Below are positions 49,352-55,672 of a stretch of DNA of 64,000 bases, in pieces. The translations under genes and the position numbers were made by a program. The notes beneath the pieces are model-generated. The model saw nothing but the letters and a program-made list of their open reading frames with translations, searched no databases and was not told where the DNA came from. The stretch is from Pseudanabaena frigida (GTDB lineage Bacteria > Cyanobacteriota > Cyanobacteriia > Pseudanabaenales > Pseudanabaenaceae): positions 41,983 to 105,982 of the forward strand of contig QBML01000010.1 in assembly GCA_003242085.1 (NCBI GenBank). The letters are read 5' to 3'. The stretch's first letter is position 1; each line of letters begins with the position of its first letter.

Positions 49352-49684
49352 ATGACTGATTTGCCAGAAGATGATCGCGAAATTATTTTGGTGGATTTTA
49401 AGGGAAGTGGCGGATCTGTAGGGCAAGTTAGCCTTTCGCCTGTAGAGCTTACTAAGCAGTTAGAGGAACCGTCGAAGCACGCAGTGAATACGGCGATGGC
49501 GACAATTCGGTTGATGGCAAATCGCACGATCGCTACTCTTGACACGATGGCAAATAAGCCGTCACAGGTGGAGGTGGAGTTTGCGATCAAGTTAGATGCT
49601 AAGGCGGGTGCTTTGTTGGCGAGTGCTGGGGCTGAGGGTAGCCTCAAGGTGAAGTTGGTCTGGCATCGGGACAAGGATAAATAG
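49352..49684 (+). CDS. Trypco1 (CU044_2847-family, trypsin co-occurring) protein
   Basis: PSQVEVEFAIKLDAKAGALLASAGAEGSLKVKLVW signature; directly upstream of a trypsin-domain gene. Confidence 0.85.
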   Translation: MTDLPEDDREIILVDFKGSGGSVGQVSLSPVELTKQLEEPSKHAVNTAMATIRLMANRTIATLDTMANKPSQVEVEFAIKLDAKAGALLASAGAEGSLKVKLVWHRDKDK

Positions 49685-49698
49685 GATATTTTACAATC

Positions 49699-52600
49699 AT
49701 GGCAAAAGTTCAGATCCAGAAACTGCTTGACTTTACATTGCAAATTCGTCATGCCACTAATGGAGATGATGAAATCGTAGGGACTGGGTTTATTGTGTCG
49801 GACAGTGGGTTAGTAGTGACGTGCGCTCATGTTGTAAAAGCTGCTGCTGGGAGTGTTTACCAAGGTGTCGAAGTAGGAGCCTATTTCACACCAGCACGTC
49901 AAAAATGGCAAGCAAGGGTGATCGGATGTTTTAAAGACTGCGATGATGATGTCGTGATGCTACAACTTGAGGATGAGAATAGCTCATTTATATTGCCTAG
50001 TAATATGCATCCTGCGCGAATTGCAGGAGCGGATGAGTCAGAAGGGAATCCCTTTCTTAGCTATGGCTATAAAAGGTTAGAGAAATATAGAGCAGGGAGG
50101 GCTGAGGGTAAGATTTTAGGTGAAGTTGAATCACCTGATAACGTTGTTTTGCAACACAATCCGATTCAGTTAAAGTCGAGTGAAATCAATGGTGGGATGA
50201 GTGGTGCGGCGGTACTAGATGTAGAGCGCGATCGCGTGGTGGGAATTATCTCGGAAACTTGGTTCCCAGATGAGACGGGGAAAGATCGGGATACGGCTTG
50301 GGCGGTGAATGTGCGGGTGTTGGCTTTGCCACCGATCGCATTGTCGATAAGTAATGAGAATGGGGTAACGGAGACAGATATAGTACCGATGGAGACAGCA
50401 CCAATGACGGATAATATTGCGATGTCTACCCTCAAGCAAAAACTGGTAAATGCGCCGCCGATCTTTGATGAATGGGTCGGACGGGTGGAATTGTTGCAAG
50501 CTTTGGATGAGGATTGGGGCGATCCTGCGCGGCGGATTGTGGAATTGATTGGGTTTGGGGGTGAGGGTAAGAGTAGTGTGGCGCGGCGGTGGGTGGCGAA
50601 TGTGTTGTCATCAAATCGCAAACCGCTTGCGGCTTTCTGGTGGGGATTTTATGAGAATGGCGGTATTGATGAGTTTTTCGAGGCGTTGGCTGAGTTTCTG
50701 GTTGGGGATGTGATTGATATCAGCGAATACAAGTCAGCGAGTGAAAAGATTCGGTTGATTAATTCGGTTTTGCGGAAGGGTGGGCGCTATCTGTTTGTGT
50801 TGGATGGTTTGGAGGTGTTGCAGCATGAGAGCGGTGATGATTATGGCTTGCTCAAAAGTCCCGATCTGCGGGAGTGGTTGCGAACTTTGGCAAAGGGAGA
50901 GAATGAGGCATTTTGTGTGGTGACGAGTCGTGCGCCGTTGTTCGATCTGATCGATCTGACGACGTTTGTGCATCGGGATGTGGAACGGTTGACGGATGGG
51001 GAGGGGTGTGAGTTATTGCAAAAGTTGGGTGTGCGGGGTGAGGTGGCGGCGCTAAGGCAGGTGGTGCGCGATTGGGATGGTTATGCGTTGGTGTTGAGTT
51101 TGTTGGGAACTTATCTGGTGGAGAGGTATGCGGGGGATGTAGCGAAGATTGAAGAGATTGAGGCTCCATTGGTGCAGGAGGCGAGGTATGACCGTGTGCG
51201 GCGAGTGCTAAGGCGCTATGATGAGCATTTGTCTGAGGCGGAACGGGAGGTGATGGAATGTTTTAGTGCGTTCCGTTTGCCAGTGAAGGAGGCGGCGTTG
51301 GCGGATTTAGGGGGATCAAGTGGGATTTTGAATCAGTTAGTGAACTATCGGATGTTGCGCTACGATAACCGATTGCAACACTATACGACGCATCCGTTGA
51401 TTAGGGCGCATTATTTAGAACGGCTGAAAGAGAAGCCCATTGAGGTAGTGCAGGCACTCCATAATCGGATTAAGAGTTGGTATCTCGACATTGCGGGAGA
51501 AATGCCCGAAGTGCCAACCCTCGAACAACTTGCGCCGTTGATTGAAGCGGTACATCATGCTTGTCAGGCGGGTGAGTATGATGAGGCGAATGATATTCGC
51601 AGGGAGCGGATTTATCAGGGAAATCAACGTGTCCTTCCCAATAAACTCGGTGCTTGGGAAACGAATCTTGCCATCATGCAAGAGTTTTTCCCACAGGGCG
51701 ACACATCCCAAAATCCGCAGGTAAGCCAACCGAGAACTAAAGGTTTTGTTCTGAATGAGATCGCCCTCTGCCTCATGTGTTTGGGACGCTTGCACGAAAC
51801 ACCTCCCTTTTACGAACGCGGCACAAAAATCGATCTCGCTCAATCCGACTGGCGCAATGCCAGTGTTGGCTACCGAAACCTAGCAGATTTGTATGCCAAT
51901 CTCGGAGATCTGGCGGCGAGTGCTAAGTCGGCGCGTGAGGCGATCGCCCTAAGCGATCGCGCCGAGGATAAAAATTACAAACGTAATTCACTTGCCTATC
52001 TCGCTTATGCAGAATTTTTGCAAGGAGATAGAACTACTGCGGGTGAGGCATTTCGGCAAGCTGAGATATTGGAATGTAAGATTTATCCTTCTAGTCAATA
52101 TCTGAACAGCATCGGAGGAATTTTTCATGCGGAATACTTGCTAAGGTATGGTGAAGTGGACTATGGGCGGCGAGTCACAGAGGTAAATCTCAAAGTTTGC
52201 GAAGAGAATCACTTTGTAAAATCTGTTAGCCAGTGTCATCGCGTTCTCGGAGATCTTGGCATCGATCCGCAAGTTCATTATGCCGAAGCCCTCAAAATTG
52301 CCCGTAGTATTTCCTTCCGTCCCGCTCTCATTGAAGCCTTACTAGGCTATGGTCGCTGGTTGGTTGGTCTAGGACTAATCCCAATTTCGCAAGACGTGGA
52401 GCAAGCAATTTCCTATTCCCCAACAGAGCAATGCTATATGCTTTCCCTCCGCACCAATGAGCATCCTATCGATGAGAACGATCTGGCACTAGCCCGACAA
52501 TATCTTGACGAAGCCCTGACCTATGCCACTACCAGCGGTTATCGCATTTATGAAACCGATCTTCGCATTGCCCTAGCATGGCTCCATTGGCGCGAAGGCG

Positions 52601-52728
52601 ATCTCATTACCGCCAGACGTGAAGCCGACAGAGCCAAACGCGCTAGTGAGGAGATGGGATATTTCTGGGGTCAAGTTGATGCGAGCAACTTAATTACGAA
52701 TTACGAATTACGAATTACGAGGTGTTGA
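49699..52728 (+). CDS. Trypsin-like protease - STAND (NB-ARC-like) NTPase - TPR protein
   Basis: Triad motifs VTCAHVV, DDDVVML and GGMSGAAV; Walker A GFGGEGKS; Walker B LFVLDGLE; HPLIR winged helix; TPR-like C-terminus. Confidence 0.9.
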   Translation: MAKVQIQKLLDFTLQIRHATNGDDEIVGTGFIVSDSGLVVTCAHVVKAAAGSVYQGVEVGAYFTPARQKWQARVIGCFKDCDDDVVMLQLEDENSSFILPSNMHPARIAGADESEGNPFLSYGYKRLEKYRAGRAEGKILGEVESPDNVVLQHNPIQLKSSEINGGMSGAAVLDVERDRVVGIISETWFPDETGKDRDTAWAVNVRVLALPPIALSISNENGVTETDIVPMETAPMTDNIAMSTLKQKLVNAPPIFDEWVGRVELLQALDEDWGDPARRIVELIGFGGEGKSSVARRWVANVLSSNRKPLAAFWWGFYENGGIDEFFEALAEFLVGDVIDISEYKSASEKIRLINSVLRKGGRYLFVLDGLEVLQHESGDDYGLLKSPDLREWLRTLAKGENEAFCVVTSRAPLFDLIDLTTFVHRDVERLTDGEGCELLQKLGVRGEVAALRQVVRDWDGYALVLSLLGTYLVERYAGDVAKIEEIEAPLVQEARYDRVRRVLRRYDEHLSEAEREVMECFSAFRLPVKEAALADLGGSSGILNQLVNYRMLRYDNRLQHYTTHPLIRAHYLERLKEKPIEVVQALHNRIKSWYLDIAGEMPEVPTLEQLAPLIEAVHHACQAGEYDEANDIRRERIYQGNQRVLPNKLGAWETNLAIMQEFFPQGDTSQNPQVSQPRTKGFVLNEIALCLMCLGRLHETPPFYERGTKIDLAQSDWRNASVGYRNLADLYANLGDLAASAKSAREAIALSDRAEDKNYKRNSLAYLAYAEFLQGDRTTAGEAFRQAEILECKIYPSSQYLNSIGGIFHAEYLLRYGEVDYGRRVTEVNLKVCEENHFVKSVSQCHRVLGDLGIDPQVHYAEALKIARSISFRPALIEALLGYGRWLVGLGLIPISQDVEQAISYSPTEQCYMLSLRTNEHPIDENDLALARQYLDEALTYATTSGYRIYETDLRIALAWLHWREGDLITARREADRAKRASEEMGYFWGQVDASNLITNYELRITRC
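52692..52720 (+). repeat. Heptamer tandem array (AATTACG)x4 + A
   Basis: Four exact copies at 52692, 52699, 52706 and 52713. Confidence 0.97.
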
Positions 52729-52733
52729 TTGCA

Positions 52734-53090
52734 ATGAAAGAAGAAAACATTATCCAGACTAAAAGTTATGCATTTGCTGTGCGTATAGTTAGACTTCATC
52801 AACATCTCGTAAACACAAAAAAAGAATATGTTCTGTCTAAACAAATATTGCGATCGGGAACCAGTATCGGCGCAAATGTTGAAGAGGCGATCAGTGGGCA
52901 GTCAAAAGCTGACTTTATCTCCAAACTATCCATAGCCTACAAAGAAGCCCGTGAAACAAGCTACTGGCTAAGACTATTAAAAGATACCGATTACCTGACC
53001 GAAAAAGAATTTGAAAGCATACATCCCGATGTAGAAGAACTATGTCGGATTATTGGGAGCATACAGAAAAGTGCGAAGGGGAATGAATAA
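52734..53090 (+). CDS. Four helix bundle protein (TIGR02436 / 23S rRNA-IVP / Avd-like family)
   Basis: KSYAFAVRIVRL, LSKQILRSGTSIGANVEEA, SKADFISKLSIAYKEARETSYWLRLL. ATG 52734 preferred. Confidence 0.93.
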   Translation: MKEENIIQTKSYAFAVRIVRLHQHLVNTKKEYVLSKQILRSGTSIGANVEEAISGQSKADFISKLSIAYKEARETSYWLRLLKDTDYLTEKEFESIHPDVEELCRIIGSIQKSAKGNE

Positions 53091-53148
53091 TTACGAATTA
53101 TCAATTACGATTTAAAATTTCGTAATTCGTAATTCGTAATTCGTAATT
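53089..53148. repeat. Heptamer arrays: three forward copies (one variant), then T + (CGTAATT)x4 inverted
   Basis: AATTACG-AATTATC-AATTACG at 53089-53109; inverted copies at 53121, 53128, 53135 and 53142. Confidence 0.95.
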
Positions 53149-53536: not shown

Positions 53537-55672
53537 ATGGCAAAGCGATCTTTAAAAGCATCAACATCAGGTGCTAGATTAGCTAAGCAGCAATTTACCT
53601 TTAAAGGTTGGACACAAGAGTATCTAGCGAGTGAAGTAGGTATCAAAACGCGGCAACCGATTTGGCGGTTTTTTGCAGGGCAACCAATTGAACGATATAC
53701 ATTTTTTGAGATTTGTACGGCTTTAGATTTGGAATGGAGAGAGGTTGCCTCCAATGCACCAGCAGAATATATCGATCGCACAGTCGATCGCATTACCAAT
53801 AACACTGAGTTAGAACCAACATCTCTAAAATTAGATGATGTAGTGCAAATGGTGCGATCGCAACGCAAGGATAAAGTTAATCATCAATGTGGCATCTTGC
53901 AACTATTAGATATTGGTCGTCCCGTCGAGCTTGACAAGATCTACATCGATGTAAATGCGATCGAACAAATCCCCAGTCAGCAAGGGATCGAAATCTCCGA
54001 TCTCGATAGTCTAGCGCCCGAAGATATCGATCGCTTCGACCTAGACAAAATCACCGCCAGACAAATCCTCGGTACAGAAGCAGTAGAGAAATATGGCAAC
54101 CTACGAGTACTGGGTAAGACAGGCTCTGGTAAGTCTATATTTCTCAAACATCTGGCAATGCAATGCAATGCTGGAAGGTTTGCTGCAAACCAAGTTCCAA
54201 TGTTTATGACGTTGCGAGATTTTGCCGAAAGTTATAAGTACAACCAGCAGTTACGCTTATTAGAGTTTATCCATCAAGAATTTCTTGAATCAGATATTTC
54301 TCACCCAGAAACCCTTAAGAAACTGCTTCACGAAGGAAGAATATTGTTCTTAATTGATGGCATTGATGAAATTTGCCAAGATGTAAAACTAGAACATAGG
54401 GTTTTAAATGAAGTTCGCCGATTTTGTGAGCGATACCACAAGAATACTTTTGTAACAACCTGTCGGACTGCCTTGCAAAAACTCACCCTGAAAGGCTTTA
54501 CCGATGTCCAAATCACTCCACTTAACGAAGACCAAATCAGCGCGGGAGCCCGAAAATGGTTTGGAGAATTTAGCAAGGCTGATGGCACTAATGGACTAAA
54601 AATTTCATCTCAATTTATGCAAGAGTTGAAATTACCAGAAAATTGGCAATTTCAGTCATTGATGACTACCCCGCTATTTTTGCATCTTGCCTGTTCCATA
54701 TTTCATCGTCAAAAGAAGTTTCCGATTAAAGCGGATTTTTATAAGCAAGGTATGGATTTGCTGGTATGGAAATGGGATGAAGCAAGAGGAATGGATCGGA
54801 ATCAATCATACCCAGGATTTGCATTACCGCAAAAGCTACAGTTGTGGAGTGAAATTGCCTCATTCACCTTTGAAAAAGGGCAATACTTTTTTGAGCAACG
54901 GGTAATTGAGGAACATATCGCTAACTCCGTACAAAATCTTACCGATACTAACTCTGAGCCAGAAGAACTTTACCAAGCGATCGAAGCCGTGTTACGCATG
55001 GTCAAGTCTCAACATCACGGACTTTTAGCTGAGCGGGCAAGGGGTATATTTTCCTTCTCCTATTCCGCCATGCAACAGTATTGTATTGCCCGTAAGATTG
55101 TTGCTGGTCAACATCTCCAACCATCAGGGCAATCTTTGCAGGAACTTGTAACTCATCTTACCGATCCTCGTTGGCATGAAATCTTTTTGCTCACGGCAAG
55201 TATGCTTCACAGTTCCGATGATTTGGTGCAGTTAATGAAACAAGAAATTAATCGCCTCGTTGCTGAATCTCCTTATTTAGAGAACTTTTTGGCTTGGGCA
55301 TACCAAAAATCCCAAAACAATCTAGAAACAAGCCCAGACTCAGGGGAGCGGAAAACTTTACATTCCTGCGATCGATTATCAAATAAAAATCACATGGAAC
55401 CCAACCTTGAGAATTGGAGCAACAATAACTGTATGACTCGGTTATGGCAGTTGCAACAAGCGATCGCCAATCGTGAAAATGTTGATGCCTCCAAACAACA
55501 AGTGTTACAAAGCTTCTATGACGCTAATCAATTGCTGCTTGACTGTCTCAATAGTAGTTGCGAAGTTACATCCAGCATCAGAGAAGAAATAGAAGCAAAC
55601 TTACTGTGTTATAGCTATTGCCGCTCTAGTTACAGCAAATTAAGTTCAAACATGTTACCAATGGAAGTATAA
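53537..55672 (+). CDS. HTH - NACHT NTPase with C-terminal helical domain
   Basis: N-terminal XRE-like HTH (GWTQEYLASEVG..RQPIWRFF); Walker A GKTGSGKS; Walker B FLIDGIDE; TPLFLHLAC; C-terminal FYDANQLLLDCLNS. Confidence 0.88.
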   Translation: MAKRSLKASTSGARLAKQQFTFKGWTQEYLASEVGIKTRQPIWRFFAGQPIERYTFFEICTALDLEWREVASNAPAEYIDRTVDRITNNTELEPTSLKLDDVVQMVRSQRKDKVNHQCGILQLLDIGRPVELDKIYIDVNAIEQIPSQQGIEISDLDSLAPEDIDRFDLDKITARQILGTEAVEKYGNLRVLGKTGSGKSIFLKHLAMQCNAGRFAANQVPMFMTLRDFAESYKYNQQLRLLEFIHQEFLESDISHPETLKKLLHEGRILFLIDGIDEICQDVKLEHRVLNEVRRFCERYHKNTFVTTCRTALQKLTLKGFTDVQITPLNEDQISAGARKWFGEFSKADGTNGLKISSQFMQELKLPENWQFQSLMTTPLFLHLACSIFHRQKKFPIKADFYKQGMDLLVWKWDEARGMDRNQSYPGFALPQKLQLWSEIASFTFEKGQYFFEQRVIEEHIANSVQNLTDTNSEPEELYQAIEAVLRMVKSQHHGLLAERARGIFSFSYSAMQQYCIARKIVAGQHLQPSGQSLQELVTHLTDPRWHEIFLLTASMLHSSDDLVQLMKQEINRLVAESPYLENFLAWAYQKSQNNLETSPDSGERKTLHSCDRLSNKNHMEPNLENWSNNNCMTRLWQLQQAIANRENVDASKQQVLQSFYDANQLLLDCLNSSCEVTSSIREEIEANLLCYSYCRSSYSKLSSNMLPMEV

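Follow-up and report, generated by a model that had tools for sequence, protein, structure and literature searches.

Protease-armed STAND systems and the Trypco1 locus of Pseudanabaena frigida

In Streptomyces subrutilus, the small protein SsPepco (WP_069919158.1) is encoded directly upstream of trypsin-Avs4, and this system has been reconstituted (Evans et al., 10.1101/2025.11.14.688446). SsPepco was found to be pre-assembled into SDS-resistant beta-barrels of 9 to 10 subunits with a pore. The activated SsAvs4 protease cut SsPepco after Ile97, a 2-kDa tail was removed and the E. coli cells were killed. The cleavage was also seen in vitro, and the toxicity required the phage portal, the catalytic serine and Pepco. 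The supplement of the study labels the tested Pepco as a Trypco2 barrel. Here, a stretch of 64,000 nucleotides from the cyanobacterium Pseudanabaena frigida was analysed (contig QBML01000010.1, positions 41,983 to 105,982; the window in the following), in which a gene for a Trypco1 protein of 110 residues (P0001; 49352-49684, plus strand) is followed 14 bp after its stop codon by a gene for a protease-STAND-TPR protein of 1009 residues (49699-52728, plus strand). Both loci have in common that a gene for a protein of about 110 residues lies directly upstream of one that combines an N-terminal trypsin-like protease with a STAND NTPase and a helical sensor. They differ in the sensor protein, which has 1638 residues in SsAvs4 and 1009 residues here, where no Avs4 model matched.

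A second trypsin-armed system is known from Avs2, where tetramerisation of the STAND module activates the fused trypsin domain (Guo et al., 10.64898/2026.08.25.746987). VcAvs2-trypsin (Evans et al., 10.1101/2025.11.14.688446; Guo et al.) resembles the P. frigida protein in its trypsin-STAND-TPR build, and its oligomer-activated protease cleaves a separate pro-effector. However, this effector is a DNase zymogen of the metallo-beta-lactamase fold and the trigger is the phage terminase, whereas the partner here is a small Trypco protein.

The Trypco1 family itself was defined by its co-occurrence with trypsin-like peptidases, and systems of this kind were predicted by Kaur, Burroughs, Iyer and Aravind (2020, PMC7159879), who noted AP-ATPase/STAND partners and an enrichment in multicellular prokaryotes. 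In their survey the pairing occurs mainly inside the ternary vWA-MoxR (VMAP) systems, whereas the form in the window is a stand-alone pair without MoxR or vWA; as in their systems, the P. frigida genome also holds a MoxR-linked Trypco1 copy.

Our results show that the pair is a real, intact and horizontally mobile Trypco1 plus protease-STAND-TPR module of this catalogued class. The locus at 49352-52728 adds one ordinary member to a widespread class; the kind of system is not new.

Domain build, linkage and mobility of the module

A sequence-only reading of the window had taken the pair for an NLR-like conflict module that is armed with a protease, to which Trypco1 would be the partner. This proposal agrees with the conservation, the linkage, the accessory distribution and the published work, and the open reading frames (ORFs) matched the coordinates, the lengths and the 14-bp gap it had given. 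The small gene had been called Trypco1-type, and its product matched Pfam Trypco1 (PF19493; E 6e-19, 68.8 bits, cut-off 24.6) and the NCBIfam model CU044_2847_fam (55.2 bits, cut-off 23). The co-occurrence that defines the family is also found here, with a Trypsin_2 protein encoded 14 bp downstream.

In the 1009-residue protein, only Trypsin_2 matched above the Pfam cut-off (residues 28-183, E 4.5e-13). The matches to NACHT, NB-ARC and TPR_MalT were all under their cut-offs, and the NTPase and the TPR claims were therefore checked by alignments and by an AlphaFold2 model that was searched with Foldseek. The N-terminal domain (residues 1-215, 49699-50343, plus strand) is an HtrA-like S1 protease. 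Its catalytic residues H44 (49828-49830), D83/D84 (49945-49950) and S168 (50200-50202) are invariant in an alignment of 81 homologues, and the triad is thus intact, as had been claimed. The same holds for the Walker motifs of the STAND module, which comprises the nucleotide-binding, helical and winged-helix domains (residues 246-600, 50434-51498, plus strand). In the Walker A motif GFGGEGKSS (50551-50577, plus strand) the residues G285 to K291 are invariant and S292 and S293 nearly so, with at least 90% conservation, and in the Walker B motif the residues D369-G-L-E372 are invariant (D369 at 50803-50805, plus strand). Upstream of Walker A lies an hhGRExE-like motif, W259-V-G-R262, with an invariant G261-R262. 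An MHD-like motif, H565-P-L567, is invariant or nearly so in the alignments of 15 and 81 homologues.

The AlphaFold2 model, computed from 81 sequences, had a predicted local distance difference test score (pLDDT) of 85. It contains a chymotrypsin fold (1-210), a disordered linker (220-243), the nucleotide-binding and helical part (246-600) and an all-helical solenoid (608-1008), the helices of which mostly have a pLDDT above 90. The claimed C-terminal TPRs were thus recovered as a TPR-like alpha-solenoid (residues 608-1009, 51520-52728, plus strand) from the modelled helices and the fold matches, together with the weak TPR_MalT match, and this region is the presumed sensor. An insertion of about 35 residues in the solenoid (about residues 894-923, 52378-52467) occurs in the Pseudanabaena clade alone and is modelled with low confidence.

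When the model was compared with the PDB by Foldseek, the protease domain matched the HtrA-like proteases MucD, DegP, DegS and Deg1 (root-mean-square deviation of 3-4 A for MucD, DegP and DegS). The NTPase and helical modules matched the archaeal STAND-TPR protein 6mfv, Apaf-1 (1z6t, 3sfz), MalT (8bob), CED-4 and plant NRC2, with E-values of 1e-14 to 1e-8 for 6mfv, Apaf-1, MalT and CED-4. Sequence searches of both proteins against the PDB chains returned nothing meaningful. The closest solved folds of the NTPase and helical modules are those of the Apaf-1/CED-4 apoptosome and 6mfv. The apoptosome is also alike in its logic, since a nucleotide-switch oligomeriser activates a protease. It differs in that the protease here is fused and not recruited by a CARD, is a serine protease and not a caspase, and is combined with a TPR-like region and not with WD40 repeats.

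Taken together, the protein has the Walker A and B motifs, the upstream arginine and the nucleotide-binding, helical and winged-helix fold of a STAND NTPase, and the catalytic triad in the chymotrypsin fold of an S1 HtrA-like protease. It also has the tripartite Avs build of an N-terminal protease effector, a STAND NTPase and a TPR-like C-terminus. The sequence-only reading had placed it in the Avs class; this stands for the build, but not for membership in a named Avs family. The PADLOC search that it had proposed was run, and the models for Avs1b (E 3e-6), RT-Protease and LmuA matched the protease domain alone. No solved Avs structure was among the best 50 Foldseek matches. A 90-family survey took Trypco2 rather than Trypco1 as its seed, and in the accessible part of its supplement the family of the 1009-residue protein was not found. 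By analogy, the module would work like Avs, though it is not filed in a named Avs family.

The best named homologues of the 1009-residue protein, together with HIP1 sites and ArgZ, mark the genome as one of Pseudanabaena. More than 500 full-length homologues with 45-50% identity were found, among them alr0304 of Nostoc PCC 7120. They occur in Cyanobacteria, Chloroflexota, Zixibacteria, Bacteroidota, Actinomycetota, Methanothrix/Methanosarcinales and in one Asgard metagenome-assembled genome. The linkage to Trypco1 was tested in 80 loci from species-representative genomes, and sequence upstream of the gene was present in 73. A Trypco1 ORF was located immediately upstream on the same strand in 57 of these 73 loci (78%), and the paired loci span Cyanobacteria, Chloroflexota, Actinomycetota, Zixibacteria, Bacteroidota and Methanothrix. 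The pairing is far more frequent than chance would give, and the two genes form a conserved, operon-like unit. Homologues without linkage to Trypco1, which the sequence-only reading had named as evidence against itself, are thus in the minority. In four further loci the Trypco1 position was taken by a protein of 141-173 residues with 2-3 transmembrane-like segments that starts with MSAPFRI (L009:3472-3930, L011:3506-3931, L022:3443-3916 and L045:3441-3962). No Pfam or NCBIfam family was found for it. Since a membrane-type protein can be exchanged with Trypco1, the membrane is a likely target of the module.

The module is accessory and compositionally foreign. A homologue was present in 7 of the 48 genomes of the genus, whereas the flanking ArgZ gene was present in all 48. 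The gene order shared with four close relatives breaks off at ArgZ, and when an empty site was sought in these four genomes, no clean insertion boundary was seen because of this break. No match to the STAND protein was found in the PLSDB plasmids by tblastn. The G+C content of the module is 0.49-0.50 compared to 0.418 for the genome, in which only 0.1% of the 2-kb windows reach 0.506. At third codon positions, the Trypco1 gene and codons 1-600 of the STAND gene have 41-44% G and 10% C, compared to 18% and 19% in the genome. From about codon 600 (position 51500) onwards, at the boundary between the NTPase and the sensor, the composition is normal again.

The composition also follows a mosaic. 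Two homologues from Pseudanabaena (L003 and L004) are 57-91% identical to the window in the protease and the sensor, but only 47-56% in residues 331-600 (50690-51500), where they also lack the excess of G at third positions. Judged from these two features, the NTPase segment was evidently exchanged by recombination within the gene. Within the closest clade, identity is 90-99% for the NTPase but lower for the faster-diverging protease (49-80%) and sensor (67-80%).

To see which other genes have this composition, 3127 ORFs of the genome were ranked by the difference of G and C at third positions (G3-C3), and the ten strongest were all scanned with Pfam. These ten encode two integrases, two NACHT proteins, a CHAT-NB-ARC-TPR protein and restriction proteins, which are MmeI-like, of type I (two HsdM, one HsdR) and of type ISP. 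Among the top 25, three further genes adjoin other Trypco1 copies, namely a MoxR ATPase, its neighbour without a Pfam match and an nSTAND1-FGE gene; the remaining 12 are without annotation. The signature is therefore common to the module and to the top integrase, restriction, NACHT and CHAT-STAND genes, a set that can be termed a defence mobilome.

Trypco1 and the proposed mechanism

For Trypco1, a monomer model from AlphaFold2 predicts an N-terminal strand (I12-F16, which is conserved), a helix of 36 residues (about 30-65) and two further strands (72-82 and 97-104). The last strand closes with W104 and is followed by a charged tail of 6 residues. F77 and W104 are invariant among 38 Trypco1 homologues, and in the alignment of these sequences aliphatic and charged residues alternate at nearly every column of the strands 72-82 and 97-104. 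Judged by the alignment columns alone, both strands are amphipathic. An amphipathic helix that is followed by amphipathic beta-strands is also found in SsPepco, and its barrel has been reported to show such an alternation as well. Unlike SsPepco, Trypco1 has the extra N-terminal strand and the 36-residue helix, and it lacks the tail of 32 residues that holds the Ile97 cut site.

From the comparison with the tested systems we infer that the pair is probably a two-gene, protease-gated cell-death module of the abortive-infection type, which would lead from the sensor to membrane damage via the processing of Trypco1. The TPR-like solenoid would bind a trigger, for which a conserved phage protein is the likeliest candidate, and thereby free the ADP-locked STAND NTPase to bind ATP and to oligomerise. 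Oligomerisation would gather the N-terminal HtrA-like protease domains and activate them, as in the trypsin-carrying Avs2. The activated protease would then process the co-encoded Trypco1. As suggested by the pore of the Trypco2 protein SsPepco, cleavage may license the formation of a pore: the processed Trypco1 would be a small, oligomeric, membrane-active effector, in which the amphipathic helix and the beta-hairpin permeabilise the membrane. The cell would be killed or arrested before the invader spreads along the filament.

The step from SsPepco to Trypco1 is one of analogy, because the tested Pepco is a Trypco2 protein, the profiles show no homology, the topology is different and the tail is short. 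The sequence-only reading had stated that no experimental test of this exact two-gene form was known. This does not hold for Pepco with trypsin-Avs4 (2025), but it appears to hold for the Trypco1 form itself: a literature search returned neither a study of alr0304 nor an experiment on Trypco1, and as far as the searched literature goes, the Trypco2 branch alone has been tested. Trypco1 had been named as a substrate, an inhibitor or an adaptor. The sister system favours the substrate, in the form of a pro-toxin, by analogy alone, and Trypco1 is without the tail that is cut in Trypco2.

Several observations weigh against the proposed mechanism. SsPepco matched Pfam Trypco2 (PF19631) alone, the window protein had no match to Trypco2, and when the Trypco1 profile of 38 sequences was aligned with SsPepco or with an alignment of 11 Trypco2 sequences by hhalign, the probability was below 1%. 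The hydrophobic moments of helix and strand, calculated from the single sequences, did not exceed those of shuffled sequences for either the window protein or SsPepco. The monomer model of Trypco1 has a pLDDT of only 55, which is low confidence. In 150 diverse members of the family, the tail after the last strand is charged and has a median length of 7.5 residues, and no conserved aliphatic residue was found in it, so that the logic of the Ile97 tail cut is not simply transferable. On the side of the sensor protein, all PADLOC v2 matches fell within residues 13-196, except a marginal one to the Cyclase model PDLC00812 (E 0.005, residues 484-515). Conservation of the sensor is unusually high, with about 50% identity across phyla, 12 of the 73 loci had no recognisable adjacent partner, and the immediate surroundings of the module are not a dense defence island. 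Candidate cut sites in Trypco1 are in the conserved linker after the N-terminal strand (G21, V23, V26) or at the aliphatic residues 98, 100 and 102 of the last strand.

Some of these points would be expected if Trypco1 were a regulator of the protease, that is an inhibitor, a chaperone or an adaptor, and if the HtrA-like protease killed or arrested the cell directly by cutting host or phage proteins. The lack of detectable homology to the tested Trypco2 pore and of a long cleavable tail fits such a role, as do the 12 loci, in which an intact protease-STAND-TPR protein is kept without a small partner, and Trypco1 has been labelled an adapter domain (PMC10907252). However, the conserved amphipathic hairpin and the helix resemble a membrane-active oligomer, and a protein with several transmembrane segments takes the Trypco1 position in four loci. 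In the SsPepco system, deletion of the small protein abolishes the toxicity (10.1101/2025.11.14.688446). Trypco1 is also found beside both serine and cysteine proteases in the P. frigida genome, and this suits a portable effector more than an inhibitor of one particular protease. We therefore consider a regulatory role of Trypco1 unlikely.

The conserved sensor and the housekeeping genes that flank the module would also be compatible with a mainly non-antiviral function in programmed death, filament fragmentation or kin and stress surveillance, with the TPR region sensing an endogenous signal. The great majority of the homologues come from lineages that are filamentous or multicellular (Pseudanabaena, Nostoc, Anaerolineae, Herpetosiphonaceae, Streptomyces, Frankia, Methanothrix), a bias that agrees with Kaur et al. 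(2020, PMC7159879). On the other hand, all tested protease-STAND relatives respond to phage proteins, and a conserved sensor is usual in those Avs proteins that recognise conserved phage folds. The distribution in 7 of 48 genomes, the recombination of domains and the codon signature shared with restriction and integrase genes are typical of mobile defence genes, but not of genes for development. A mainly non-antiviral function is thus quite improbable, and the protease-gated cell-death module is the reading that we prefer. No Trypco1 homologue was found in phage sequences by tblastn.

Neighbouring genes and the Trypco genes of the genome

The 3' end of the STAND gene overlaps an (AATTACG)4 array (52692-52720, plus strand), which encodes the last residues of the protein (NYELRIT...). 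A four-helix-bundle gene (TIGR02436/23S_rRNA_IVP; 52736-53090) abuts its stop codon, and one could suspect a decaying or inactive remnant, in which the C-terminus was overwritten by the repeat array and the neighbouring insertion. The array accounts for only the last 9 or so residues, after the last invariant residue D994, and the conserved sequence is not truncated. Both frames are open, and all catalytic and invariant residues up to D994 are kept. The same array was found at the 3' ends of the homologues in L002, L003 and L103, where the four-helix gene was not found, and the array-encoded C-terminal peptide is also shared by full-length homologues (P0007, P0011 and P0021). Since the array recurs at these ends, it is no sign of gene damage, and that the module is a remnant is hardly credible.

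Arrays of at least three perfect AATTACG units are present at eight places in the genome, on contigs C1, C3, C5, C41, C44, C54 and C55. In the window, two arrays in inverted orientation (52692-52720 and 53120-53148) bracket the four-helix-bundle gene. A link of this gene to a diversity-generating retroelement was set aside, as its Avd-like score was weak and no reverse transcriptase adjoined it in the window. A NACHT-NCH2 STAND protein of 711 residues is encoded 0.8 kb downstream of the module (53537-55672, plus strand), for which no PADLOC or NCBIfam match was found. Both genes were considered as parts of the module and rejected, as neither is conserved beside the homologues. A scan for promoters and terminators gave the counts expected from shuffled sequence.

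Upstream of Trypco1, a divergent small ORF encodes a helical protein of 76 residues (P0147; 48865-49095, minus strand). By phmmer it recurs at the same relative position upstream of Trypco1 in P. biceps (L004, E 1e-41) and in Pseudanabaena sp. lw0831 (L024, E 1e-40), and family-model scans gave no match for it. P0147 may be associated with the module.

Six Trypco1 genes and a single Trypco2 gene were counted in the P. frigida genome. All but one of the Trypco1 genes, the window copy among them, adjoin genes of the trypsin, caspase/CHAT, MoxR, nSTAND1-FGE or CHASE2 type, and so does the Trypco2 gene. The other four partnered Trypco1 copies lie beside a MoxR ATPase with CHAT and LRR-Roc-COR, beside a caspase-STAND-TPR protein (Peptidase_C14), beside an nSTAND1-FGE-sulfatase protein and beside a trypsin-TPR protein. 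In the nSTAND1-FGE protein a caspase was suspected, but no Pfam caspase domain was detected. The sixth copy is without such a partner and adjoins a gene that was read as uvrA from its N-terminal sequence. The Trypco2 gene (125 residues) is directly upstream of the gene for an 857-residue CHAT-CHASE2 protein. Together they form a second Pepco-type module (C1:39338-42310) across the left edge of the window, in which the CHAT-CHASE2 gene ends (1-328). In a sample of 251 cyanobacterial genomes, Trypco1 was found in 45 and Trypco2 in 10, and no other listed genome had more than four Trypco1 matches. This picture matches the published one of a portable protease-effector pair that is joined to many sensors.

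When the six Trypco1 copies (C64:161605-161964 among them) were compared, their last strands ended in two ways. The ending xWxx is seen in the MoxR/CHAT-linked copy and in both copies that neighbour trypsin-like proteases, whereas those beside the Peptidase_C14 STAND protein and nSTAND1-FGE and the copy without a partner end with KCxFP. With regard to these six sequences, the difference by protease type hints at recognition at the end of the last strand. We also considered that Trypco1 may be a second class of small membrane effector that is gated by a protease, has an independent evolutionary origin and is licensed unlike Trypco2. This is a tentative possibility that we regard as somewhat doubtful. 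Licensing may then occur, for example, by the loss of the conserved N-terminal strand and linker (I12-F16 to G21, V23 and V26) or by a cut at the conserved aliphatic residues of the last strand, and not by the trimming of a C-terminal tail.

For the window itself the outcome is modest, as a known class has been correctly annotated. Modules of a protease and a small effector are among the most abundant predicted immune or cell-death devices of multicellular prokaryotes, and the Trypco1 family alone comprises 4367 cluster representatives at 50% identity. The alr0304-type family is compact, its conservation across bacteria and archaea is about 50%, and its sensor is confidently modelled. In conclusion, it therefore offers a practical entry to the questions of how Trypco1 is licensed and what the sensor recognises.

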